Shown: one piece after another, positions 51,449 through 64,000 of the stretch
Layout of the letters: every line of letters begins with the position of its first letter
Position numbering within the stretch: the stretch's first letter is position 1
Assembly: GCA_022821965.1 (NCBI GenBank)
Contig: JAJECN010000015.1
Coordinates: forward strand, 54,785-118,784
Source: Candidatus Poribacteria bacterium
GTDB lineage: Bacteria > Poribacteria > WGA-4E > WGA-3G
Direction of reading: 5' to 3'
Length of the DNA stretch: 64,000 nt
Notes under the pieces: generated by a model
What the model saw: only the letters and a program-made list of their open reading frames with translations
Database searches by the model: none
Told to the model about the DNA's origin: nothing
Made by a program: the position numbers and the translations under genes

Positions 51449-53008
51449 ATGATGGCTACAGAAGATTATACTTCGCGTGTACCGCATCATACGTTCGCAG
51501 ACACATTGGAAGAGCAGGAAGCACAGTTGGAAACGAATCCACTGATGCAGCGGCTCAACGCTTATCGGAAAACGTATGAAGGCGATCCGCACCGTCCGAT
51601 TTATCACTATATCAACCCTGAAGCGATGCTCAATGATCCGAACGGTCTCTGCTTTTGGCAGGGACGGTGGCATCTTTTTTATCAGGCGTATCCACCTGAA
51701 GATACGCGACAGCACTGGGGACACGCAATCAGTGATGATCTCATCCACTGGCGCGACCTGCCTTATGCAATTTATCCCAACCCCGAAAGATGCTGTTTCT
51801 CCGGTGCAACGCTTGTAGAAGAAGATCGCGTGATTGCGATGTACCACGGCACGGTTGTCGGTAACATGGTGGCGGTATCAAGCGATCCACTTCTCCTGAA
51901 TTGGGAGAAAGTCTCCGGTAAAGCGGTCATCCCATCACAACATGCGGATGGCACAACCCCGGTCTACCGCGTCTTTGACCCGTGTATCTGGAAGAAAGAC
52001 GGTATGTACTATTCACTGTCGGGCGGCACACTCCCGCACGGACCCGGTGGCAAACCGATTCGTGCCAATTTTTTGCTCCGTTCAGCAGACCTCGCAAACT
52101 GGGTCTACCTGCACCCCTTCGTTGAAGATGATATGTTCACGTTGGTCGGCGATGATGGCGCGTGTCCCTATTTTTGGCCCATTGGAGATCGACACATGCT
52201 CCTTTTCTTCAGCCACATGAGCGGTGGACAGTATTTGCTCGGTGATTATGACACTGAACGAGACAAGTTCGTCGTAACAGCAGGTGCGAAAAACAATTTC
52301 GGGGCGGCATCCCCTGCGGGTGTCCACGCACCCTCAGCAACACCTGATGGGAACGGCGGTCTCATTGTCATCTATAACATGAATCCAGCGAAGCCTACCA
52401 AGGGTTGGAACCAGATCATGACGCTGCCGCGTCGCTTAACACTCCTCTCCAGAGATGAAATCGGGATTGAGCCTGCGGGTGATATTGAATCGTTGCGATC
52501 CGAACATCGGCACGTCGATGCGATGACACTCCCCGCGAATGAGGAGATCGTACTGGAAGGCATAAATGGCAATGCGATGGAGCTTGAACTCGAAATTGAC
52601 ACGAAATCGGCACCGATGGTTGAACTGAATGTCCTCCGTTCACCGCAGAAAGAAGAGTTTACCCGTATTGCGTTCTTCAGGGAACGCGGTATGCGTAACC
52701 TGAATTCCGATGTTAACGTGCGCGATAGTCTGCTAACAATCGATTCATCCTATTCGTCGATTGCATCGGATGTTCTCTCACGTGCACCTGAAACCGGAGC
52801 GATCTCCATTGCACAAGACGAGACTCTCAAATTACGGGTGTTTGTTGACAAGAGTGTTGTAGAGGTGTTCGCGAACGGGAAGCAGTGCGTCGCGATGCGT
52901 GTCTATCCGGACAAAGAGGAAAGCGTCGGTGTATCGTTGCGTTCACAAGGACAAGCGTGTGAACTCAAATCTCTGGATGCTTGGCAGATGCATAACATCT
53001 ATGAATAG
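51449..53008 (+). CDS. GH32-family beta-fructofuranosidase-like protein, cytoplasmic, EC-motif Glu replaced by Ala
   Basis: Motifs MLNDPNGLCFWQGRWHLFYQ and FDPC. The ACPYF segment aligns to the ECPDF motif. Confidence 0.75.
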   Translation: MMATEDYTSRVPHHTFADTLEEQEAQLETNPLMQRLNAYRKTYEGDPHRPIYHYINPEAMLNDPNGLCFWQGRWHLFYQAYPPEDTRQHWGHAISDDLIHWRDLPYAIYPNPERCCFSGATLVEEDRVIAMYHGTVVGNMVAVSSDPLLLNWEKVSGKAVIPSQHADGTTPVYRVFDPCIWKKDGMYYSLSGGTLPHGPGGKPIRANFLLRSADLANWVYLHPFVEDDMFTLVGDDGACPYFWPIGDRHMLLFFSHMSGGQYLLGDYDTERDKFVVTAGAKNNFGAASPAGVHAPSATPDGNGGLIVIYNMNPAKPTKGWNQIMTLPRRLTLLSRDEIGIEPAGDIESLRSEHRHVDAMTLPANEEIVLEGINGNAMELELEIDTKSAPMVELNVLRSPQKEEFTRIAFFRERGMRNLNSDVNVRDSLLTIDSSYSSIASDVLSRAPETGAISIAQDETLKLRVFVDKSVVEVFANGKQCVAMRVYPDKEESVGVSLRSQGQACELKSLDAWQMHNIYE

Positions 53009-53185
53009 ACCTCAAGAGCCGGATGCATCAATAAAATACGCCGCGGATCTTTATAATGTCAAAGAGGTTACGCTCCACGGCACAGCAGACTTATCGTTCT
53101 GGGAGACGGTGCTGCACAAGGAAAACCTTTTTCCGTACCACGAAAGAGGTAAAGCAGTCCTCTCGCTCAGTGCGATAGAGGCAAA

Positions 53186-53698
53186 ATGGAGGGGTTCAGG
53201 TTTAAAGAGTTTGTTATGGCTGTTGGAACTTGCCTTGATGAAAATGGAATGAGTTTGGATGGATACTATCTGCCGCACGCATTTAATTCGTCCAAATTCT
53301 TAGTTTTCTCAGAGAGGGTGTTCTTTCGTACCCCATATTTTCACGGTAACATCCGACTCGAAAACAAACTCCCTGCTTCCATCAAGTTGCAGGATAAGAC
53401 AGAAGTGCTCCTCCACGCGAGAATGTCTATCCCGAGCACACCACCCATAGTTGAATATTTGGAATGGAAAGGCCCTATTTTTCTTCCAAATAACCGCGGT
53501 AAATTCTTCGCTATATTGGCAGGTGAAACCGAAATTTATCCATTTTCACCCGAAATAGATCAGTTTGAAATCAAACCGTCAGCGCGGCACCGAATTTTTC
53601 AGGAACTTATTGACAGCAATTTTGTTGGCAGCGTATGGGGTTTGAGAGGCAATTCTCGCCACGCAAGGTCGAAGACGAACAGGCGAGATTCTGAGTAA
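53186..53698 (+). CDS. hypothetical protein between the two GH32 genes
   Basis: 170-aa ORF with SD AGAGG and no recognised domain. Confidence 0.3.
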   Translation: MEGFRFKEFVMAVGTCLDENGMSLDGYYLPHAFNSSKFLVFSERVFFRTPYFHGNIRLENKLPASIKLQDKTEVLLHARMSIPSTPPIVEYLEWKGPIFLPNNRGKFFAILAGETEIYPFSPEIDQFEIKPSARHRIFQELIDSNFVGSVWGLRGNSRHARSKTNRRDSE

Positions 53699-53711
53699 GG
53701 GATGATCTGAT

Positions 53712-55334
53712 ATGGCAGATACATGGGAAAAACTCCAAGGTAAAACCTATCCTGATACGGAGGCGGAACAGTTCGCTGCCCTTGAAACGGATGAGACATT
53801 GCGCGACTACAAGAAACGGAGAGAGGCGTGGGCATCGGATCCTTACCGTCCCATCTATCATATATCTTCTCTCTACGGCATGGGCGATGCGAACGGACTT
53901 TGTGAATGGCAGGGTCGGTATCATCTGTTTTATCAATTTGGTCCCCCAGGTGTTGAGCGGGTTCATTGGGGACACTGCTATAGCGAAGACTTGGTGCATT
54001 GGCAAGATCTGCCCCCTGCGCTGTATCCTGATACCGAACTACACTGCTTCAGCGGTCAGTGTCTCGTGGAAGATGAGCGGGTTGTTGCGCTCTATCACGG
54101 TAAAATGTCGGGGAATAGCATTGCGACTGCGAGCGATCCGCTCCTGCTCAATTGGGAAAAGCATCCGAATAATCCTGTCATACCGAATGTCGAGACCAAT
54201 GAATACGAGCAGCCTTATAACGTCTTTGATCCATGTATCTGGAAAGAAGAAGATGGGTATTATTCAATCTCTGGTACATCAGCCAACGGCTGGATTCGAG
54301 AGCGGCGTAGATCTGCCTCACACCTCTTTTATTCAAAAGACCTGACATACTGGGAGTATCTCCATCCGCTGCTGATTGACGATGTTTTTTGTGATCTCGG
54401 TGAAGATGGGGCGGTGCCGAATTTCTTGCCTATTGGAAACGGTAAGCATATCCTACTTCTTTTCAGCCACAAACGTTCAGCGCGCTACTACATCGGCGAA
54501 TACGACCGCGGGAACCACAAATTTACGCCTGAATATCACGGCAGGATCAACCACGGCACTTTCGGGGGTGGGATGGTTTCCTGTCCCTCCGCAACGGTGG
54601 ATACAAGAGGTCGCCTCATCGCTATCTTAAACTGCTCGGACGGAAGGCAGAACGAGCAAGCCGCGTCCGGATTGTGTATGACTCTCCCGTGGCACCTCAC
54701 GCTGAAAGCGGACAACGCGCTGGCAGTAGAACCCGTTGAGGAGGTAAAAAGTCTGCGAAATACGCATACCCGCCTCACGGACATCGCTTTATCAGCCAAT
54801 GAGGAATTTATACTTGATGCGGTAAAAGGCAAAGCAATTGAGATTGACCTGACCTTAGAGATAGGAACTGCGCGGGAGGCCGGATTATATGTATTCCGAT
54901 CACCAAACGGGAATGAACGGACAAAAATCTCTATCTATAACCATAGACACGGCAAAACCAATGATAGCCTACAGATTGACACGTCCTATTCCTCTTTGCG
55001 TACAGACCTTGTCGGTAAACCTCCTGAGACTGCACCGTTCCGCTTGAGCAGTGACGGTAGAGTCCGACTCCGTATCTTCCTTGATCGTAGTCTCATTGAG
55101 GTCTTCGCCGATAACGGAGAATGCTTTCCAGAATGGGCGTTTCCGAGAAAGGGTATTGACAAACTCTTCCCGCTATTCTCGCGACAGTGTGCTGTTGCAC
55201 GCGCCTATCCGCTGCAAGAGGAGAGCAACGGCATTTCGCTTTTCGCCATCGGTGGCGAGGCGAAGGTTGTTTCGATGGATGTGTGGCAGATGCGCTCCAT
55301 CTGGCAAGAGTTGAAGTATCGTGAAGGGGAGTAA
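53712..55334 (+). CDS. GH32-family paralog, cytoplasmic, with divergent catalytic motifs (GDANG; AVPNF in place of ECPDF)
   Basis: Motifs MGDANGLCEWQGRYHLFYQ and VFDPCIW; 540 aa. Confidence 0.7.
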   Translation: MADTWEKLQGKTYPDTEAEQFAALETDETLRDYKKRREAWASDPYRPIYHISSLYGMGDANGLCEWQGRYHLFYQFGPPGVERVHWGHCYSEDLVHWQDLPPALYPDTELHCFSGQCLVEDERVVALYHGKMSGNSIATASDPLLLNWEKHPNNPVIPNVETNEYEQPYNVFDPCIWKEEDGYYSISGTSANGWIRERRRSASHLFYSKDLTYWEYLHPLLIDDVFCDLGEDGAVPNFLPIGNGKHILLLFSHKRSARYYIGEYDRGNHKFTPEYHGRINHGTFGGGMVSCPSATVDTRGRLIAILNCSDGRQNEQAASGLCMTLPWHLTLKADNALAVEPVEEVKSLRNTHTRLTDIALSANEEFILDAVKGKAIEIDLTLEIGTAREAGLYVFRSPNGNERTKISIYNHRHGKTNDSLQIDTSYSSLRTDLVGKPPETAPFRLSSDGRVRLRIFLDRSLIEVFADNGECFPEWAFPRKGIDKLFPLFSRQCAVARAYPLQEESNGISLFAIGGEAKVVSMDVWQMRSIWQELKYREGE

Positions 55335-55484: not shown

Positions 55485-55790
55485 GTGTCAGTTACAGCAA
55501 AAGAATGGGTCTTTAATACCGTCGAAAAATTATCCGCTTCTGAGATCGAAGAATTGAAGCGTTACTTGGAATACCTCGTTTGGAAATCGGAAATCCCAAC
55601 AGGAAGTTTAGGAAACTCTCAAGATTCGTCCAAACTTAAACGAAAAGGCCAACCCAAGCGGATCTTATCAGCTATTAACAAATCGCATGATATGACACCA
55701 GAAGACGCGGAAGCATTGCTAAACGCAATTAAAGAAGGAGAAATCCCAATGCGTTTTGATTCTGTCTTCGACGAGTCGGAAGGTGAATAG
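55485..55790 (+). CDS. putative antitoxin of VapBC pair
   Basis: 101-aa ORF with SD AAGGAGG and a GTG start. Its stop abuts the PIN-toxin start. Confidence 0.5.
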   Translation: MSVTAKEWVFNTVEKLSASEIEELKRYLEYLVWKSEIPTGSLGNSQDSSKLKRKGQPKRILSAINKSHDMTPEDAEALLNAIKEGEIPMRFDSVFDESEGE

Positions 55791-55793
55791 TTG

Positions 55794-56210
55794 ATGGACT
55801 ATCTCTTGGATACCTCTACGTGCAGCTTCCTAATGGCACGTGTCCCTTATGTTACTGGTCACTTCGATTCTCTGTCCGACCTCAATGACTACCTCTTTAC
55901 CTGTACGATTGTTAGAGGCGAAATCCTTTTCGGGATTCAGAAACTTCCGATAGGTCGCAGGCGGCAAGTTTTGGAGAATCAAGCAATTAATCTGTTTGAA
56001 GAATTGCCCTGTTTAGCAATCCCGAAGCAGGCTGCTGATTACTATGCCCCAATGAAGAATTACGCCGAACAACAGGGAACCCCATTGTCGGAGAACGACC
56101 TTTGGATAGCCTCTACTGCTGTGGCTCTTGACGCAATTCTCGTCACTACTGACTCAGACTTCCAAAGGATTGCTGAATTCGGATTAAAACTTGAAGATTG
56201 GACAAATTGA
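55794..56210 (+). CDS. vapC: PIN-domain ribonuclease toxin VapC
   Basis: Acidic PIN residues LLDTS...E...D...TTDSDF. 138 aa. Confidence 0.75.
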   Translation: MDYLLDTSTCSFLMARVPYVTGHFDSLSDLNDYLFTCTIVRGEILFGIQKLPIGRRRQVLENQAINLFEELPCLAIPKQAADYYAPMKNYAEQQGTPLSENDLWIASTAVALDAILVTTDSDFQRIAEFGLKLEDWTN

Positions 56211-56311
56211 TCTGGGAAGATGTGGATTTCTTTTTGAAAATTAAGATGAAACAGTTTCTGAATTTCTTTACAATTCTAACACAACTTCTGATGCAAAATG
56301 AAGACTAACCT

Positions 56312-57538
56312 ATGTTTTATCTAACTGTTATTTTCACAGTCTATATCCTATTCTTTTCAATCCAATTGGCTGCAACAGCGCAAAGCGTCAACATCTCTGA
56401 ACCTACCCCTCTACCGGCTGCTGTCCGCAAAACTTTTAACTTAGACCCGTTTTACGAGCAATGGATTGATGTGGAAGGATTGCCTGTTGTCGCATCATCG
56501 AAGGTGGATCCTTATGCTATGAAAGAAGCGGCATGGCTCATTCGGCGGATGATTGGGTATCGTCGGGATGTGTTGCAGGCACTCGCTGAAAATAACGTGC
56601 GTTTTGCTGTGATGGCACATAACGAACTGACAACCCAAATCCCCGAACACAGCGATCTGCAACCCGACTATTATTGGGATCGACGTGCACGCGGTTTGGG
56701 TTCCACGCCAGCGAGACCAGCAGTAAGTTGCGGTGAGGAAAATCTGCTTAACTATTCAGGTGACCCTTATTCCACTGAGAACATTCTGGTACACGAATTC
56801 GCGCATGCGATCCACCAGATGGGGTTGAATACGGTGGATCCCAGTTTTGATAACCGCCTTAAAACACTATATGATGCTGCAGTCGAAAAAGGATTGTGGA
56901 AAGATACCTACGCGATTACAAACCGAGCAGAGTACTGGGCTGAAGGCACACAATCCTGGTTCGATACAAACCGAGCAAACGATGACCAACATAACCATGT
57001 TGATACCCGCGACAAGTTGAAAGAATACGACCCCGCACTCGCGGAACTGTTGACAGAAGTCTTTGGCGATGCGGACTGGCGATACACGCAGGCAATAACC
57101 CGTACGCATCTCGTACATCTCCAAGGGTTCAGTCCTGAAGGATCTCCAGGGTTTGAATGGCCCGCCGAGTTGATAGAATTGACAGAGTTTCACCAACAGT
57201 TAAAGAACCCAGACAGCGATGGTAATGACAAGTGGATAGACTTGAAGGCGCATGATCCAAGTTTGCTTCCAAATCTAAGATCTGGAGACGACGACACGGA
57301 GACCGCAATCCTCTTCGTGAACGGCACAAAAACTGAGATCGCCTACTATTGGGTGGATTATGAAGGTAGTGAGAAATTCTACGGCAAAATTGCTCCAGAT
57401 GCCTTCGTCAATCAACACACATACATAGGGCATATCTGGGTGGTTAAGGGCACAAATGAAGGAAACCTTGCTGTGTTCCGTGCTGAAGAAAAGACTGGAC
57501 GGGCATTTATTGATTTGGAGTTGCTGAATGGTCAATAA
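56312..57538 (+). CDS. secreted zinc metalloprotease-like protein (HEFAHAIH) with C-terminal beta-sandwich domain
   Basis: Signal peptide. HExxH motif LVHEFAHAIHQMG followed by a downstream AEYWAEG. Confidence 0.5.
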   Translation: MFYLTVIFTVYILFFSIQLAATAQSVNISEPTPLPAAVRKTFNLDPFYEQWIDVEGLPVVASSKVDPYAMKEAAWLIRRMIGYRRDVLQALAENNVRFAVMAHNELTTQIPEHSDLQPDYYWDRRARGLGSTPARPAVSCGEENLLNYSGDPYSTENILVHEFAHAIHQMGLNTVDPSFDNRLKTLYDAAVEKGLWKDTYAITNRAEYWAEGTQSWFDTNRANDDQHNHVDTRDKLKEYDPALAELLTEVFGDADWRYTQAITRTHLVHLQGFSPEGSPGFEWPAELIELTEFHQQLKNPDSDGNDKWIDLKAHDPSLLPNLRSGDDDTETAILFVNGTKTEIAYYWVDYEGSEKFYGKIAPDAFVNQHTYIGHIWVVKGTNEGNLAVFRAEEKTGRAFIDLELLNGQ

Positions 57539-57607
57539 GATGTGTGGATTGGTAATATTTTTTACTTTTATCCTTAATCGAAGATTGAATACTTTAGGAA
57601 ACAAATT

Positions 57608-60600
57608 ATGGCAACAGATTATAAAAAGATAGCTGAAGAGCACGAAAAACGATACGGGTGGGATGTAAAGCCTCGTCGTATCTACAAACGGCTTTACAAC
57701 GACAAGACACATTTCGTCTATGAGCTCATTCAGAATGCTGATGATAACGAAAGCCTAAACCTCGAACTGCAGCTAGACAAAAATGAGTTGTTTGTTTGGA
57801 ACGATGGATATCAGTTTAGCGAAGAAGATGTGCGCAACATCTGTTCGCTAGGTTCAAGTAATAAGGATTTGACACAAATTGGTACTTTCGGCATCGGTTT
57901 CAAAGCGGTTTACAACTATACGGATTTTCCGGAAATTTACTCTGGTGCTGAACGTTTTCTTATCCGAGATCTCATCAAACCAGAAAGTATCGCTGAAATG
58001 GATTTTGCGGTTGCAAAACAAGTAGGTAACGGCAAAACAGTCTTTCATTTGCCTTTCAAAGATGGCCTGCGTCAAGAAGATATTGAACGATTGAAAAATC
58101 GACTTCTCAATTTAAACAAGCGAGCTTTACTATTTCTACGTCATCTCGAAATGGTTCACTGGCGTGATGCGCGCGACGCACAGGAAGGTTCTTATTCCTG
58201 TCACCGCCAACCTCATAGTAAAATTCAGAATGCCTCCGAGGTCAAGTTAACTGTGTCGTTGAACGGTGATAATCAACCTTCGGAGACATTCCTCGTTTTT
58301 CGCAAGGAAGTTCAGCCACCACAAGATGTAATTAATCAGTTGTTGCAACAAGAAGAAGATGACGAAGATCGACACCGTATTAAGCGGTCCGCCGAAAAGT
58401 TACAACCTGTTGAAGTTGCATTCAAAGTACAGGATGGTGGAGTAACACCAATAGACGATTGTGTGTTGTTTGCTTATCTTCCAACCCAGAAAGAAACTCA
58501 TCTGCGATTTCTCATTCAGGCGCGCTATCAAACAACGCCTGCCCGTGATAATATTTCAAATGATAATCCATGGAACAAATGGTTAGTGCAAGAAACAGCC
58601 AACTTTCTTCCGGATGTATTGGAACAATTGAAAGCAGGTGGTTTGCTTACTCCTACGTTTTTTAATGTAATGCCTTTGAGAGATGACAATGTACCTGTAG
58701 AGTATGGACCTATCTCCGAGTCATTGGGCAGAGCGATGCGAGATCGGTCGTTCGTTCCTACGCAAAACGGAGGGTATGCAAAAGCAGAACATGTGCTCTA
58801 TCCCCATGCCGAATCTCTGCGGCAATTAATTAAAAGCGATTGGATGCATCCGAATAATTGGTTACATCCTGAGATACGAAATACGAAAGAGTTTCGTCGA
58901 TGTTTTAGGGCTATATGTGAAGCAGGTGTAGAAATAGCGTCTACCGGTCGTGTTTTGCGCTGGCTTGAAAGGAAGACTCCATCCTGGCTTGAAGGCAGAT
59001 GTAGCGAATGGCTATGTTCTTTGTACGTCTATTTGAATAGTCAGAAATCCGAATTGAAGCGAATAAAGAAGCTGCCGTTGGTTCGGCTTGAAAGTGGGAA
59101 GCATGTATGTGCAGACAATCAGTCAGTATTTTTCCCACCAGATCAAGCCGAAGTGCGCGAAGATATGGTTTCTTTCTTCATGGAATTGCCTATTCTTCAA
59201 TCCTCTCTGCTTGCGGGGAACACACGCAACGTCATTGAAACTTTCTTAAAAAGTCTAGGGGTTAGGATGTTGCACCCTGAAGATTTGATTCGTGAATCAA
59301 TTTGTCCCAGGTACCTTCAAACCGAGAAACCTACCGAAGCACAAAACCGTGCGCATGTGCGCTACCTTCGGCATTTTTTATCAAAGGCTTCAAAAGCAGC
59401 GCGTAGCAGTTTGAGTAAAGAAATTAGTAAGATCCCAATTCTGTCGGTTTACAGAGGAAATCAACGAAAACCTCTTGACTTCCTAGAACCTTGCAACGCC
59501 TATCTCTCTCAAGCTTATACAAGTGATACTAGTTTAGAAACCTACTTTTCTGAATGCGGCAACGTTTGGTACGTAGATGATAATTATATAGAAAATGATT
59601 CCGATCGAAAAAAATGGCTCCAGTTTTTTAAATCAATTGATGTTATGGAAACACCACGAGTTATTGAAGAAAACTTAACTATCAGTTCCCAAAACCGTCA
59701 AGAACTTGACAAACGCGGACTTGAGTGGAAAAATAGTAAGAAAGGGTTAATCATTGAAGATCGTCACTTCGATGGTCTGCCGGAAGTGTTGGCTCGAGTT
59801 AGCAATCATAAGGAAATGGATCTTGCACAAGTTCTTTGGCATCTATTAGTTAAAGCACTTCCATCAGGAGAATCGCAACGAGATGCTCTCTTTCAAGGCA
59901 TTTATCGCTGGGGCACTTATAGTTCTCAATTTGAATCCTTTCAGGCTATGTTTTATCGCCAACTGCAGAAGGCAGCATGGCTTCCTGACGAACAAGAGAA
60001 CTTTCGTGTTCCTGCTGAATGTTTCGCACCCACTTCTGAAAACCGTAAGGTTTTAGGGGATAGTGTAGCGTACCTGCACCCAGATTTTGATATTAGTCAA
60101 GACAGCGAAGCTGCACGATGGCTAGCTAGAAAATTGGGGGTACATTTGGACGCAAATATGGATAGTGTACTCAATTACCTTCAAGCCCTGAGCCGCACCG
60201 GAGTGAGTGTTGAACAGGTTAAACCACTCTATTGCTTTCTTGCACAACAAAATTCGTGTCGGAGCGAAGAATTCAAGCAAAAACCGCTTATCTTCACTTC
60301 CAATCCAGAAACAAATTGGTGGAAACTAGATAAAGTATTCTGGGAAGATGAAAATCCAGTTTTCGGTAATCATCGTGGTTACCTTAGAGAGAGTTACGCT
60401 GATAATGAAGCAATACTAAAGCCGTTTTTTATCGCTTTGGGAGTCTCGGAACGCGCTGCACCTTTAGACTATGTCCGTGTTATCCGAGAGGTCACGTCTG
60501 TGGAGCTAGCTGACGACGCAACAGTACGTGAGCGTGTTAAGATTCTTTACGGTCGCTTATGGCAGTCTCTGCAGGAAAGCGGTAACTTGCTAAACAGTGA

Positions 60601-61927
60601 AGAATGGGAAAAAGAGTGGGAACAAACACGCGATGGCAAATGCTGGCTTGGCAAGAATGGAAGCAAATGGGATTTTTACCCTCGGTACGAATTGGTTTGG
60701 AACGATCATCCTCATGTTGCTGGGGTTTTTGAAGGTGAGGTTCCATTTTGGAAATTCGACGGTAGTTTATTAGACCTTGCTAAGCATCTGGAAGTCGAAT
60801 GTTGCTCTCGAGCCGTGATAGAAGTCCAGCCTTGTGGTGTCCAAGAAGAGGATAAGGATTGGTCAGCGAGGGTCCGAGATCTGCGTCCATATATTCATGC
60901 CTTTCTCAATTCACCGAGTTTGTGTGAGTTACAAGAAGATAAATCTGCCCATATTTTAGATTTTTTGTCGGTTCGCTTGGTCGAGAAGTTAGAAACGGCG
61001 TATACATTGAAAAAAGTTTCCTTGATTGATCCAAACGCACCTCAGAGTTTTTTAGATGTGACCGACCAGAAAGTAGTACTCTGGTTGGCATTGGAGGCAG
61101 GTGTAAGTGAATATGCAGAGCTGATCGGTGATGCTTTACAGGGATACTTTGATGTTAGAGATCTAGGGAGATTTGCCGAAGATTTGCTGACAAAAAAACG
61201 AGATCGTGTGCTTTCCCGCTGGCAACAAAAGGGTCTCGAAATAGATATTTGCCTAATGCCAGAAACGGATACTAAAAAAGGTGAAGGAAAACAACCGATA
61301 CCTATTAATGAGGAACTTCCAGCTCAATCTAATGATGAAGATGCTAATTTGGTAAAGGATGAATCTGATACGGGAATCCTAGTAGTCGATGAGATTTCTG
61401 AGCACAGCAGTGGAATGATTAATTCGAGAACAGACGAATCTGGACACCATGAATATACTCCGCGTTCCAGTGGTACAAGTTGGTCGGGTGGGCATTCAAT
61501 AAGTACGTCTAGTGGAAAAAGTAAGGGCAAAGGCCATAGTGGTCACTATGGAAGTGAGGAAAGCGATGAACATCGAGAATTAAAGGAATACCTAGCAGCG
61601 AAAACCTTTGAACTTGGTATCGGATTGAAACTCGTTGAGGTTGAGTATACATTCGGGTCAGGCGATAGAGTGGATATTTTGCTGAAGGATGATTTTGGGA
61701 ATCCTGTAACTGTAGAAGTGGAAATAGGTTTTTCATCCAAAGCCGGAAGATACATCGGGATTTGGCAAGCCATAAAGTATCAGCATCTTGCGGCTGTGGA
61801 ATATGGTTTGCCGTGTGAACAGGTACGTAGTATTCTTGCAGCGCCAGAAATTCCTGAAGACATTAAAAAGAAATGTAAGGAATTGGGAATTGAACCCATT
61901 GAGGTTTCTAATCAGACGAAAGCATAG
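57608..61927 (+). CDS. 1439-aa sacsin/NOV-like GHKL (HATPase_c) ATPase with DUF3883/PD-(D/E)xK-like C-terminal domain
   Basis: N-terminal Bergerat N-box ELIQNADDN and G-box GTFGIGFKAVY. Low-complexity S/G/H/K linker. C-terminal GDRVDILLKD...VTVEVEIG beta-strand motif. Confidence 0.65.
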   Translation: MATDYKKIAEEHEKRYGWDVKPRRIYKRLYNDKTHFVYELIQNADDNESLNLELQLDKNELFVWNDGYQFSEEDVRNICSLGSSNKDLTQIGTFGIGFKAVYNYTDFPEIYSGAERFLIRDLIKPESIAEMDFAVAKQVGNGKTVFHLPFKDGLRQEDIERLKNRLLNLNKRALLFLRHLEMVHWRDARDAQEGSYSCHRQPHSKIQNASEVKLTVSLNGDNQPSETFLVFRKEVQPPQDVINQLLQQEEDDEDRHRIKRSAEKLQPVEVAFKVQDGGVTPIDDCVLFAYLPTQKETHLRFLIQARYQTTPARDNISNDNPWNKWLVQETANFLPDVLEQLKAGGLLTPTFFNVMPLRDDNVPVEYGPISESLGRAMRDRSFVPTQNGGYAKAEHVLYPHAESLRQLIKSDWMHPNNWLHPEIRNTKEFRRCFRAICEAGVEIASTGRVLRWLERKTPSWLEGRCSEWLCSLYVYLNSQKSELKRIKKLPLVRLESGKHVCADNQSVFFPPDQAEVREDMVSFFMELPILQSSLLAGNTRNVIETFLKSLGVRMLHPEDLIRESICPRYLQTEKPTEAQNRAHVRYLRHFLSKASKAARSSLSKEISKIPILSVYRGNQRKPLDFLEPCNAYLSQAYTSDTSLETYFSECGNVWYVDDNYIENDSDRKKWLQFFKSIDVMETPRVIEENLTISSQNRQELDKRGLEWKNSKKGLIIEDRHFDGLPEVLARVSNHKEMDLAQVLWHLLVKALPSGESQRDALFQGIYRWGTYSSQFESFQAMFYRQLQKAAWLPDEQENFRVPAECFAPTSENRKVLGDSVAYLHPDFDISQDSEAARWLARKLGVHLDANMDSVLNYLQALSRTGVSVEQVKPLYCFLAQQNSCRSEEFKQKPLIFTSNPETNWWKLDKVFWEDENPVFGNHRGYLRESYADNEAILKPFFIALGVSERAAPLDYVRVIREVTSVELADDATVRERVKILYGRLWQSLQESGNLLNSEEWEKEWEQTRDGKCWLGKNGSKWDFYPRYELVWNDHPHVAGVFEGEVPFWKFDGSLLDLAKHLEVECCSRAVIEVQPCGVQEEDKDWSARVRDLRPYIHAFLNSPSLCELQEDKSAHILDFLSVRLVEKLETAYTLKKVSLIDPNAPQSFLDVTDQKVVLWLALEAGVSEYAELIGDALQGYFDVRDLGRFAEDLLTKKRDRVLSRWQQKGLEIDICLMPETDTKKGEGKQPIPINEELPAQSNDEDANLVKDESDTGILVVDEISEHSSGMINSRTDESGHHEYTPRSSGTSWSGGHSISTSSGKSKGKGHSGHYGSEESDEHRELKEYLAAKTFELGIGLKLVEVEYTFGSGDRVDILLKDDFGNPVTVEVEIGFSSKAGRYIGIWQAIKYQHLAAVEYGLPCEQVRSILAAPEIPEDIKKKCKELGIEPIEVSNQTKA

Positions 61928-62172
61928 GTGTCAATTTAAAGATTTTCGCCAGTGTTTTATAGACCATCTATATAAACATGCCGCCCTTACAGGGCTGAAG
62001 CGTTATAAACTGATGCTGCTATAAACATACCGTCCCCACGGGACTGAAGAGGTTTTTTGAAGCCTTCAAGGTTTCCGCGTAAATCCAGTTCGGTTAGGAA
62101 ACCAAACCTACCGGATCTGAGGAGCGAGACGATTGTTTTTTTAAATTGACATGTATGGTTTCTAATCAGACG
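61903..62172. repeat. structured intergenic element: 16-bp direct repeats flanking 12-bp terminal inverted repeats and two tandem hairpin-containing ~33-nt repeats
   Basis: GGTTTCTAATCAGACG occurs at 61903-61918 and 62157-62172. TGTCAATTTAAA at 61929-61940 is mirrored by TTTAAATTGACA at 62140-62151. Two internal hairpin repeats, ATAAACATGCCGCCCttacaGGGCTGAAG and ATAAACATACCGTCCCcacGGGACTGAAG, lie between them. Confidence 0.5.
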
Positions 62173-62182
62173 GAAAATACAG

Positions 62183-62812
62183 ATGGATGAAGTCGTCCAG
62201 AAGGTTACTGCGTTTATCGTGCGTGAAAGGGGTCGTGTCAAGGAATTACTTGTCTTTAAACATCCAACTGCCGGTATCCAAATTCCCGCAGGTACTGTTG
62301 AAAAGGGCGAAGATATTGAAACTGCTGTAAAGAGAGAGGCTTATGAAGAAACAGGCTTACAGTTTGTGGAAATCGAAGATTATCTGGGTTGTTTTGAGAA
62401 CGAATTGGAATGCAACCAAAGAATAATAGCGGAAACAACGCAGGTTTATATCGAACCCAACTTAAAGGCGATTCCCTACAAGCGAAAACTACCCAAAGGA
62501 CTTACCGTTGGTTACCATTCCACACAAGAGGATTTCACACACATTTCGTACATTGAGTATGAATATGACCAATTTTACGAGCCGATCTGCATTGACGCTA
62601 ATATCACTGGGTGGGTACCGAATGAAAACCTAAGTGCCCAGAAGAAAAGACATTTTTTCCTACTAACAACGCAAGAAGAAACGGCGGACGCGTGGGAATT
62701 AAAGAGCGATCAAGGACACATTTTCAAGCCGTACTGGACACCGCTTTCGCCGAAACCCCAAATTATACCGCCACAAGACAAGTGGTTGGATTTTGTCTAC
62801 GAGAGAATCTGA
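62183..62812 (+). CDS. Nudix hydrolase with C-terminal extension
   Basis: Nudix box GTVEKGEDIETAVKREAYEETGL. Confidence 0.75.
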   Translation: MDEVVQKVTAFIVRERGRVKELLVFKHPTAGIQIPAGTVEKGEDIETAVKREAYEETGLQFVEIEDYLGCFENELECNQRIIAETTQVYIEPNLKAIPYKRKLPKGLTVGYHSTQEDFTHISYIEYEYDQFYEPICIDANITGWVPNENLSAQKKRHFFLLTTQEETADAWELKSDQGHIFKPYWTPLSPKPQIIPPQDKWLDFVYERI

Positions 62813-62892
62813 ATTGTGATAGAATAAATGTGAGTAGGACGAGGTAACCTTTCCCTTACAGTTAAAATATTGGAACGGGGAGCAAGATAATT

Positions 62893-64000
62893 ATGGAACG
62901 CATCAAACTAACTTCGTTGGGACAAATTCATGAAGCCGACATCTCCTTTGGAGATCTGACAGTATTCGTCGGTGAACAAGCGAGTGGAAAGAGCATTCTA
63001 CTCCAGCTTATGAAGTTAATTTTAGACGCAGGCGATATTACGCAAACCCTTAAAAAACACGGTTTTGATTGGCACGAAAAAATAGAACATTTTCTATCTC
63101 TCTATTTTGGTGAAGGGATGGAGTGCATTTGGGACCCCGTCGCAACAAAAATCACCGTTGACAACGACACGTTTGAACTTGACAAAGTCCTAACGAAAAA
63201 AGGCAGAAAAAAAACGGAATCTCTCTGCATGATACCTGCACAACGGGTGATGACGCTCAAAGATGGATGGCCGCGCGCCTTTACGGACTATGCTATCGGT
63301 GACCCATACGTTATTAAACAATTCAGTGAACAATTACGACGATTGGTGGAAATGAAATTAGTTACCAGTGAAGATACTATTTTCCCGCAGGTAGGTCGCT
63401 TGAATAAAGTCGTCCGCGATGCAATTGGGGAAAGTATTTTTGGTGGGGCTAAGGTTAAATTGGATCGTTCAGGTTTACGTAAACGGATTGTCTTAGACAT
63501 GGCGGGCAGCCAACTGCCGTTTATGGTTTGGTCTACTGGGCAGAGAGAATTTGTACCGCTTTTGATGGGATTGTCCCAGTTAATGCCATCAGGCGGCGCG
63601 GCAAAAAAAAATAACCTCAACTGGGTTATTATTGAAGAACCGGAAATGGGCTTACATCCCCAAGCGATCTCAGCACTGCTTCTTATTTTTTTGGAGCTGC
63701 TAAGGCGAGGCTACAAAGTCATCGTTTCTACGCATTCATCCCAAATTTTAGAACTTATTTGGGCGATTCGATTTATTGCTAAGTCAAATTCTGCTCCAAC
63801 ACGGTTAAGACAGTTGTTGGATTTGAATGCAAATGTCTATTCCAAAGACCTCACGGAGACAATTTTGAGTGAAAAAACTTTCAAAACCTATTATTTTTCT
63901 CGTCAGGAGAGTGTTGTGAACGTCAAAGACATTTCAACCTTAGACGCTGAAGATCCAGATGAAGCAGTATCGGATTGGGGTGGTCTTACACTATTTAGTA
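62893..64000 (+). CDS. AAA_21/OLD-like ABC-type ATPase, 3'-truncated by window end
   Basis: SD GGGGAG precedes the ATG. Walker A GEQASGKS; LHPQ and VIVSTHS motifs. No stop codon before the window ends. Confidence 0.7.
   Translation, partial: MERIKLTSLGQIHEADISFGDLTVFVGEQASGKSILLQLMKLILDAGDITQTLKKHGFDWHEKIEHFLSLYFGEGMECIWDPVATKITVDNDTFELDKVLTKKGRKKTESLCMIPAQRVMTLKDGWPRAFTDYAIGDPYVIKQFSEQLRRLVEMKLVTSEDTIFPQVGRLNKVVRDAIGESIFGGAKVKLDRSGLRKRIVLDMAGSQLPFMVWSTGQREFVPLLMGLSQLMPSGGAAKKNNLNWVIIEEPEMGLHPQAISALLLIFLELLRRGYKVIVSTHSSQILELIWAIRFIAKSNSAPTRLRQLLDLNANVYSKDLTETILSEKTFKTYYFSRQESVVNVKDISTLDAEDPDEAVSDWGGLTLFS

Follow-up and report, generated by a model that had tools for sequence, protein, structure and literature searches.

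A probable anti-phage gene cluster in Candidatus Poribacteria, read as a patchwork of catalogued modules around a conserved Nudix gene

We analysed a 64,000-nucleotide (nt) stretch of a Candidatus Poribacteria genome (contig JAJECN010000015.1, positions 54,785 to 118,784; hereafter the window). From position 55,485 to its end, the window carries a putative VapBC toxin-antitoxin pair, a secreted-looking protein with an HExxH motif, a 1439-amino-acid protein, a Nudix hydrolase and an ATPase gene that runs into the window edge (Table 1). An initial annotation, made from the sequence and its open reading frames (ORFs), had called this region a defence island and had proposed that the giant protein, the Nudix hydrolase and the ATPase make up an undescribed system. 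We found the ORFs where that annotation had placed them, all on the + strand, together with every motif that it had listed: ELIQNADDN, GTFGIGFKAVY, GEQASGKS, VIVSTHS, RVDILLKD..VTVEVEIG and a Ser/Gly/His/Lys-rich linker. The same-strand block, which had been said to start at 55.5 kb, actually begins at 51449 with two GH32 genes.

Table 1. Features of the window from position 55,485 to its end (MITE, miniature inverted-repeat transposable element).
Feature	Position	Strand	Basis
Putative VapB-like antitoxin, 101 aa	55485..55790	+	Directly abuts the PIN gene; assignment by position only
VapC-type PIN-domain toxin, 139 aa	55791..56210	+	PF01850 PIN 7.3e-13
Secreted-looking HExxH protein, 408 aa, with VHL-beta-like domain	56312..57538	+	HEFAH motif, hydrophobic N-terminus, PF01847 8e-7
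TmtA of Tiamat, 1439 aa	57608..61927	+	PADLOC PDLC03972 4.4e-111
TmtA sacsin/Hsp90-type GHKL ATPase domain, ~residues 30-300	57695..58507	+	Pfam SACS 1e-16, P_loop_sacsin 7.5e-24
TmtA Ser/Gly/His/Lys-rich low-complexity linker, ~residues 1230-1314	61295..61549	+	Seen in sequence
TmtA NucS-type PD-(D/E)xK nuclease-fold domain, residues 1315-1439	61550..61927	+	PF01939 24.5 bits, Foldseek
MITE-like insertion, ~254 nt	61903..62175	.	Direct duplication and inverted-repeat arms
Nudix hydrolase, 209 aa	62183..62812	+	PF00293 2.2e-12, intact Nudix box
PDC-M56A ABC-type (AAA_15/AAA_21) ATPase, 369/385 aa in window	62893..64000	+	PADLOC PDC-M56A 3.2e-152

The 1439-amino-acid protein is TmtA, which on its own makes up the described Tiamat system. 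We found that it aligned with the PADLOC TmtA model PDLC03972 (4.4e-111, 370.9 bits) over residues 25-1099, corresponding to profile positions 33-989 of 1302, and that seven other PADLOC TmtA models also matched it, with E-values from 1e-77 to 4e-22. According to the papers that cite Millman et al. 2022 (PMC12926258, PMC10482375), Tiamat is a single-gene anti-phage system whose mechanism is not known; it has also been listed among the single-gene PD-(D/E)xK systems (bioRxiv 10.1101/2024.10.26.620412), and it occupies island hotspots, with islands reported in Pseudomonas (PMC12629846). The text of the Millman preprint mentions Tiamat neither by name nor by domain, and our literature search returned no description of TmtA in connection with phage. 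Like Tiamat, the window protein is a single protein of more than 1300 amino acids that matches a TmtA profile, combines an N-terminal GHKL ATPase with a PD-(D/E)xK-fold domain, and stands alone in its hotspot, as Tiamat does in the Pseudomonas islands. It shows every Tiamat membership feature that we checked by sequence or structure.

The N-terminus of this protein had been annotated as a GHKL ATPase of the MORC/sacsin type. The sacsin half of that assignment stood: the sacsin models Pfam SACS and NCBIfam P_loop_sacsin both matched, the latter scoring 84 bits (cut-off 50), whereas HATPase_c_3 stayed under its cut-off (19.9 bits against 25). The Bergerat-fold residues E39, N43, D46, G67, G92, G95 and G97 were invariant across 41 aligned alleles. 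Residues 1-1200 were modelled with AlphaFold at a mean predicted local distance difference test (pLDDT) score of 75.8, and Foldseek on this model gave sacsin SR1 (5v44, 1.7e-6) as the best match, followed by GRP94/Hsp90, MutL, TRAP1, topoisomerase II and MORC2. The last of these was only a distant match (E = 0.037), and we dropped MORC proper as an identity for the head on account of that distance. No significant match of this model fell within residues 300-1200. TmtA alleles were most diverged around residues 651-750, and the disordered, low-complexity linker was weakly conserved and differed in length among them. TmtA resembles the sacsin, NO VEIN (NOV) and prokaryotic MORC-like proteins in its head, which is closest to sacsin SR1 in both sequence and fold, and in that some sibling alleles end in NOV_C/DUF3883; unlike those proteins, the window allele failed PF13020 and gave no match to an S5-fold or CW domain.

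At the C-terminus, a DUF3883/restriction-endonuclease-like domain had been proposed; the endonuclease fold was supported, but the DUF3883 identity failed for this allele. PF13020 (DUF3883) gave no match to this TmtA at E <= 0.1, and PF01939 (NucS_C) matched at 2.9e-5, with 24.5 bits against a cut-off of 24. A search of the PDB required a profile, because the single sequence had given only spurious matches to designed Ig proteins; the profile, built from 29 allelic C-termini, returned only NucS (2vld) and EndoMS (5gke). Consistent with this, an AlphaFold2 model of the domain (pLDDT 92.8) matched EndoMS by Foldseek (5gke_A, E = 1.4e-8, TM-score 0.74, root-mean-square deviation 2.1 Å), and Card1/Can2, the R2 endonuclease and restriction enzymes came next. 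The C-terminal 125 residues share the catalytic-domain fold of NucS/EndoMS as well as the positions of its D...E and Q..(K)Y motifs, with D1356 and E1370 aligned to NucS D160 and E174. Unlike NucS, TmtA has no N-terminal DNA-binding domain of the NucS kind, its nuclease-fold domain is fused to a 1300-amino-acid GHKL protein, and the equivalent of K176 is a glutamate, E1372. Most alleles have glutamate at this position, and a minority have lysine. We take the fold of the domain, but not its catalytic competence, as settled: it is PD-(D/E)xK of the NucS type.

Among the Poribacteria homologues of TmtA, the C-terminal module was mostly NucS_C, with NOV_C/DUF3883 (PF13020) in six siblings (P0163, P0169, P0171, P0173, P0177 and P0201, among homologues P0122-P0240) and PF12449 in one. 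TmtA alleles of Poribacteria exchange their C-terminal nuclease module. The window protein accordingly departs from Tiamat as catalogued in three respects: the nuclease module belongs to the NucS type and lies outside the TmtA profiles, with NOV_C/DUF3883 in sibling alleles; it reads E-x-E where the canonical motif is E-x-K; and its host phylum is Poribacteria, where an anti-phage role is predicted from sequence.

The gene at the window edge had been described as a truncated AAA_21/OLD-like ATPase. The truncation and the ATPase family were confirmed: the product matches AAA_21 (4e-19) and AAA_15 (3e-18), and contig L057, which shares the final 1369 nt of the window at full identity and runs on for another 819 nt, gives a full protein of 385 amino acids, only 16 of which are cut by the edge. 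This protein is subunit A (hereafter M56A) of PDC-M56, a candidate already catalogued, and it matched the PADLOC model PDC-M56A end to end (3.2e-152, profile positions 1-367 of 382). Its partner M56B, of 153 amino acids, lies just past the window end on L057, overlaps M56A by 4 nt and matched PDC-M56B at 4.7e-46; after it, a GFO/IDH/MocA-type oxidoreductase gene begins. The OLD part of the description did not stand. We ruled out an OLD nuclease, as the full 385 amino acids matched AAA_15, AAA_21 and DUF2813 only and held no Toprim domain, and the PADLOC match to Old (6.5e-15) covered residues 236-310 alone. The secondary PADLOC matches, to AriA (second-best, 1e-19), NsnB, HEC-01A, Old, GajA and PtuA, were confined to ATPase motifs. 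In M56B, residues D47, R59-W60-D61, E74-x-H76 and K90 were invariant; no Pfam family or PDB sequence matched it, the best E-value of an M56B profile against the PDB being 0.062. M56A has the Walker A and C-terminal ATPase motifs and the small downstream partner that are found in PARIS (AriA/AriB), Septu (PtuA/PtuB), Gabija (GajA/GajB), HEC-01/02/03 and OLD; unlike these systems, M56A and M56B have no Toprim, HNH, PIN or NERD domain. The PDC set comprises 145 untested candidates that were identified by 'guilt by embedding' (bioRxiv 10.1101/2024.01.29.577857), and our literature search returned no mention of PDC-M56.

We also assessed the surroundings of M56A in other lineages, using 80 non-Poribacteria loci obtained by an alignment-driven scan of metagenome contigs and from one Opitutaceae plasmid, in which M56A was 41-65% identical. 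M56B lay immediately 3' of M56A in 67 of the 68 loci with downstream room. The 528 kb of flanking sequence at the 80 loci, with at least 800 nt upstream in 45 of them and at least 5 kb on each side in 18-19, contained no Nudix-box ORF, Nudix homologue or TmtA homologue. In L127 (4633-13988), the pair sits inside a BREX system, in the order PglX, M56AB, PglZ, BrxL. In L081 (750-15186), L099 and L111, its neighbours are restriction genes of types IIG and IV together with helicases resembling DruE or DrmD; L081 has the pair between a type IIG restriction-modification (R-M) gene, a type IV restriction endonuclease and a DruE-like helicase. The strict pairing of A with B in the absence of Nudix and TmtA outside Poribacteria indicates that PDC-M56 is an autonomous two-gene module. 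Unlike the loci in which the pair is embedded, the window has it outside BREX, DISARM and type I R-M, beside the conserved Nudix gene. Within Poribacteria, the pair has decayed in places, with a split M56A in L025 and L037, nothing but M56B remnants in L006 and L022, and an IS605 TnpB between the two genes in L001.

The window region corresponds to a hotspot that we followed by a tblastn census of 54 Poribacteria loci, all of different species and all from one genome-collection scan, with flanks of 10 kb. The hotspot is bounded by GH32 genes on one side and by the Nudix gene and an oxidoreductase/PhyH/DUF6807 block on the other. Its variable content comprises VapB/VapC, HindVP-type R-M, TmtA alleles, PDC-M56AB, TnpB, a DDE transposase, a desaturase and several uncharacterised genes. 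The HindVP-type type II restriction endonuclease and its C5 methyltransferase are present in 14-17 species; in L001 (6664-8742) and 14-17 other loci they occupy the slot upstream of the HExxH gene, where the window has the putative VapBC pair. TmtA was found in 11 of the 54 loci: nine times upstream of the HExxH gene, once between HExxH and Nudix (L031) and once between M56A and Nudix (L053). The M56AB pair lies upstream of Nudix in L043, L045, L048, L049, L051 and L052, which are more distant Poribacteria, and downstream of it in most others. Among the 44 loci with complete flanks, eight have TmtA and 28 have M56A, with both present in five and neither in 13; the presence of one is independent of the presence of the other (odds ratio 0.94, Fisher p = 1.0).

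TmtA itself behaves as a unit of gain and loss. Three loci (L005, L036 and L059) have the window layout minus TmtA, with collinear flanks at 77-88% nucleotide identity, and this layout indicates that window positions 57522-62183 are a clean 4.66-kb single-gene indel. The TmtA alleles are 47-62% identical to that of the window, except for one truncated homologue at 77%; for GH32a, HExxH, Nudix and M56A, identities in the genomes carrying the alleles compared are 73-98%. In addition, the GC content at third codon positions (GC3) of TmtA, 0.362, is the lowest of the region; that of the flanking GH32 genes is 0.53-0.54. From these results, we conclude that TmtA is a presence/absence cassette without an obligate neighbour.

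Distant TmtA-like GHKL proteins, with an N-terminal half at 26-28% identity, are encoded on two plasmids, Methanomethylovorans pMETHO01 (L139) and an Ensifer plasmid (L140). Both genes come after a gene for a 'helicase-related protein', and the Ensifer gene also precedes a RecB-like nuclease gene. This arrangement suggests a relative made up of several genes, with the nuclease encoded apart from the GHKL protein. The contexts differ from that of the window, and these relatives add nothing on the grouping of GHKL protein, Nudix and ATPase.

Of the VapBC pair that had been called upstream, the toxin was supported by its PIN domain, but the antitoxin was not supported by any family. The PIN protein matched NCBIfam VapC models at 5e-16 and 1e-8, under their equivalog cut-offs. 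The 101-amino-acid 'VapB' ORF matched no Pfam, NCBIfam or PADLOC family above threshold, DUF2281 appearing at 0.031 only, and its identity is by position; the same ORF stands upstream of a PIN gene in several other Poribacteria loci. Most of the related loci lack VapC.

The HExxH gene is read here as a non-defence gene. A PADLOC search with its product was without a match, ATLF and Peptidase_M90 matched under their Pfam cut-offs, and PF01847 (VHL-beta) matched at the C-terminus, over residues 323-381. The protein is 84% identical to its orthologue in L001 and 53-90% identical across Poribacteria. Its gene is present in 38 of the 44 full loci, where it divides the two variable slots of the hotspot. 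The VHL-beta domain is a eukaryote-like domain in a sponge symbiont.

Upstream of the cluster, window positions 51449-55334 hold a pair of GH32 glycoside hydrolase paralogues with about 40% identity, on either side of a conserved 170-amino-acid ORF for which no family was matched. The GH32 copy number and the presence of this ORF differ between Poribacteria species.

The Nudix protein is treated here as the product of a conserved resident gene of the locus, outside both defence modules. Its Nudix box, GTVEKGEDIETAVKREAYEETGL, is intact and fits GX5EX7REUXEEXGU, and it is both intact and invariant in 12 aligned orthologues, including those from loci without TmtA and M56A. The protein is 70-89% identical over the 54 species, and hundreds of homologues at 85-100% identity carry the name Candidatus Poribacteria. 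Searches of NCBIfam and the PDB gave generic Nudix matches only, with no subfamily model at its cut-off. The family consists of widespread stand-alone proteins of about 210 amino acids (59 clusters at E <= 1e-30), and the more than 100 full-length relatives at 32-43% identity, one of them from Herpetosiphonaceae, bear generic MutT/YjhB names. We dropped PDC-S07 as an identity for this protein, as the match reached 18.8 bits (2.4e-4) over the Nudix box only.

The junction between TmtA and Nudix was of interest for its packing. In L031, the TmtA stop overlaps the GTG start of Nudix as GTGAATGA, and in L005 it is the HExxH stop that overlaps the Nudix start, as GTGA. In the window, the two genes are separated by a spacer of 255 nt that is occupied by a MITE-like element with 19-nt direct repeats (61903-61921 and 62157-62175), 23-nt inverted-repeat arms (61918-61940 and 62140-62162) and two 30-nt hairpin units (61971-62000 and 62020-62049), and this spacer folds unusually well (z = -3.6). 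In the frame of TmtA, the second copy of the repeat would lead to a TGA that overlaps the Nudix ATG, and the layout of the repeats suggests that the element was inserted into a formerly overlapping junction of TmtA stop and Nudix start. The element had no Rfam match, and an Rfam scan of 55.0-64.0 kb matched zero families. About 100 nt of its interior match L005 (18171-18071, inverted), and its terminal arm is unique among the loci compared. A promoter and terminator scan performed at or below chance level and carries no information on operon structure. Tight packing is the sole feature that favours a link between Nudix and the gene upstream, and it is equally true of the non-defence HExxH gene.

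Together, these results indicate, with a probability of roughly 85%, that the region is an anti-phage gene cluster in which catalogued modules (a putative VapBC, Tiamat and the candidate PDC-M56) form a patchwork around a conserved Nudix gene, and that the Nudix and secreted HExxH/VHL proteins are the products of conserved resident genes around which cassettes insert. What the data show is the identity of each module, how its domains fold, that TmtA behaves as a cassette and that the modules are independent of one another. The initial call of a defence island holds up on a GHKL ATPase fused to a restriction-endonuclease-fold domain, a defence-type ABC ATPase and a variable hotspot. What is new is the host lineage; the modules themselves are known or candidate ones, and the cluster is no new kind of system.

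Several points weigh against this reading. The TmtA profiles align to residues 25-1208 at most, the best model ending at 1099, and leave the C-terminal nuclease uncovered; nuclease activity is not assured, because the lysine position of E-x-K is a glutamate in the window protein. An anti-phage role in this organism is a prediction, and PDC-M56 is a candidate system. All of the compared Poribacteria loci were found via the Nudix gene, and the census covers genomes that carry it. Moreover, PDC-M56AB adjoins Nudix, whether upstream or downstream of it, in nearly every Poribacteria locus with the pair, and the gene upstream overlaps the Nudix start codon in two loci (L031 and L005). With synteny inside a single phylum, some lineage-specific functional link of the Nudix protein is conceivable.

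These last observations also stand behind the alternative that survives best, an unlikely one in our view, in which the Nudix protein is a Poribacteria-specific accessory of PDC-M56 or of the cassette upstream, acting as a regulator or safeguard that, for example, hydrolyses a nucleotide that triggers or feeds its neighbour. The adjacency to M56AB on either side, the two stop-start overlaps and the weak match to PDC-S07 over the Nudix box would all fit this role. However, 16 of the 44 full loci keep an intact, conserved Nudix gene without M56A, and the 13 loci with neither module are among those that argue against it; the 80 loci of other lineages have no Nudix beside M56AB; the family is widespread, with proteins of about 210 amino acids, and generically named; and adjacency inside one phylum can be inherited hotspot synteny. 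A related proposal, which we consider quite unlikely, keeps Nudix as a resident of the hotspot and makes it a partner that is translationally coupled to the upstream cassette, stays beside PDC-M56 on either side and tunes or safeguards the defence modules through nucleotide hydrolysis. If true, it would define a lineage-specific three-part variant of Tiamat or PDC-M56.

It is very improbable that TmtA is instead a housekeeping protein without a role in defence, either a sacsin/Hsp90-like chaperone or a NucS-type DNA-repair factor, that sits in the cluster by coincidence. The closest structural relatives of its two ends are indeed sacsin/Hsp90 and the mismatch endonuclease NucS/EndoMS, and one NCBI record labels a TmtA homologue 'endonuclease NucS'. 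Yet eight PADLOC TmtA models match strongly; the gene is present in some loci and absent from others, its alleles are deeply diverged, its GC3 is low and its nuclease domain is swapped between alleles; it shares its region with R-M, toxin-antitoxin and PDC-M56 modules; and the protein is without the NucS N-terminal DNA-binding domain, its match to NucS being limited to residues 1324-1433.

Least credible of all, with an almost negligible chance, is the reading put forward initially, that TmtA, Nudix and the AAA_21 ATPase act together as a new system of three components, such as an anti-phage module that processes a nucleotide signal or NAD/ADP-ribose: the three genes share a strand with little space between them, the ancestral TmtA stop appears to have overlapped the Nudix start, and L031 has the same gene order, but the giant is the TmtA of a system defined by a single gene, the ATPase is PDC-M56A with its own partner M56B and outside Poribacteria never has Nudix or TmtA beside it at any of the 80 loci, the order is repeated in only one of 54 species (L031), the HExxH gene usually separates TmtA from Nudix, the presence of TmtA and that of M56A are independent, and Nudix, which stands alone in many species, is equally conserved where both are absent. 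By the initial annotation's own condition, a triad syntenic in no other genome would refute this reading, and the single recurrence in L031 comes close to that.

With the patchwork of modules as the preferred reading, we can suggest how its parts may work; for these mechanisms, and for anti-phage activity in the Poribacteria host, the schemes are what we infer by analogy. For TmtA, knowledge of GHKL ATPases and of NucS suggests a clamp-and-cut scheme: the ATP-bound GHKL head would dimerise or clamp when phage DNA or a phage protein triggers it, and this would unite two NucS-type domains and lead to a cut in the DNA. NucS acts as a dimer. The middle of the protein, an unassigned alpha/beta scaffold of about 1000 residues, would be a likely sensor or scaffold. 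For PDC-M56, M56A may be an infection-sensing ATPase, with M56B as an effector, an effector-releasing partner or an adaptor; we liken this module to the PARIS, Septu, Gabija and HEC systems because AriA was the second-best PADLOC match of M56A. VapBC would be a generic type II toxin-antitoxin pair whose toxin is a PIN RNase.

The window gives a concrete case of a hotspot for defence genes in a sponge symbiont that has not been cultivated, and its value is modest. The occurrence of PDC-M56 as a strict A and B pair over about 80 unrelated loci, sometimes in BREX, makes a stronger case for testing this candidate. Finally, the Poribacteria hotspot is a natural allelic series of TmtA, with more than 100 alleles at 50-60% identity and an invariant GHKL ATP site; with its interchangeable NucS_C and NOV_C modules and its E-x-E or E-x-K motif, this series could guide mutagenesis and structural work.

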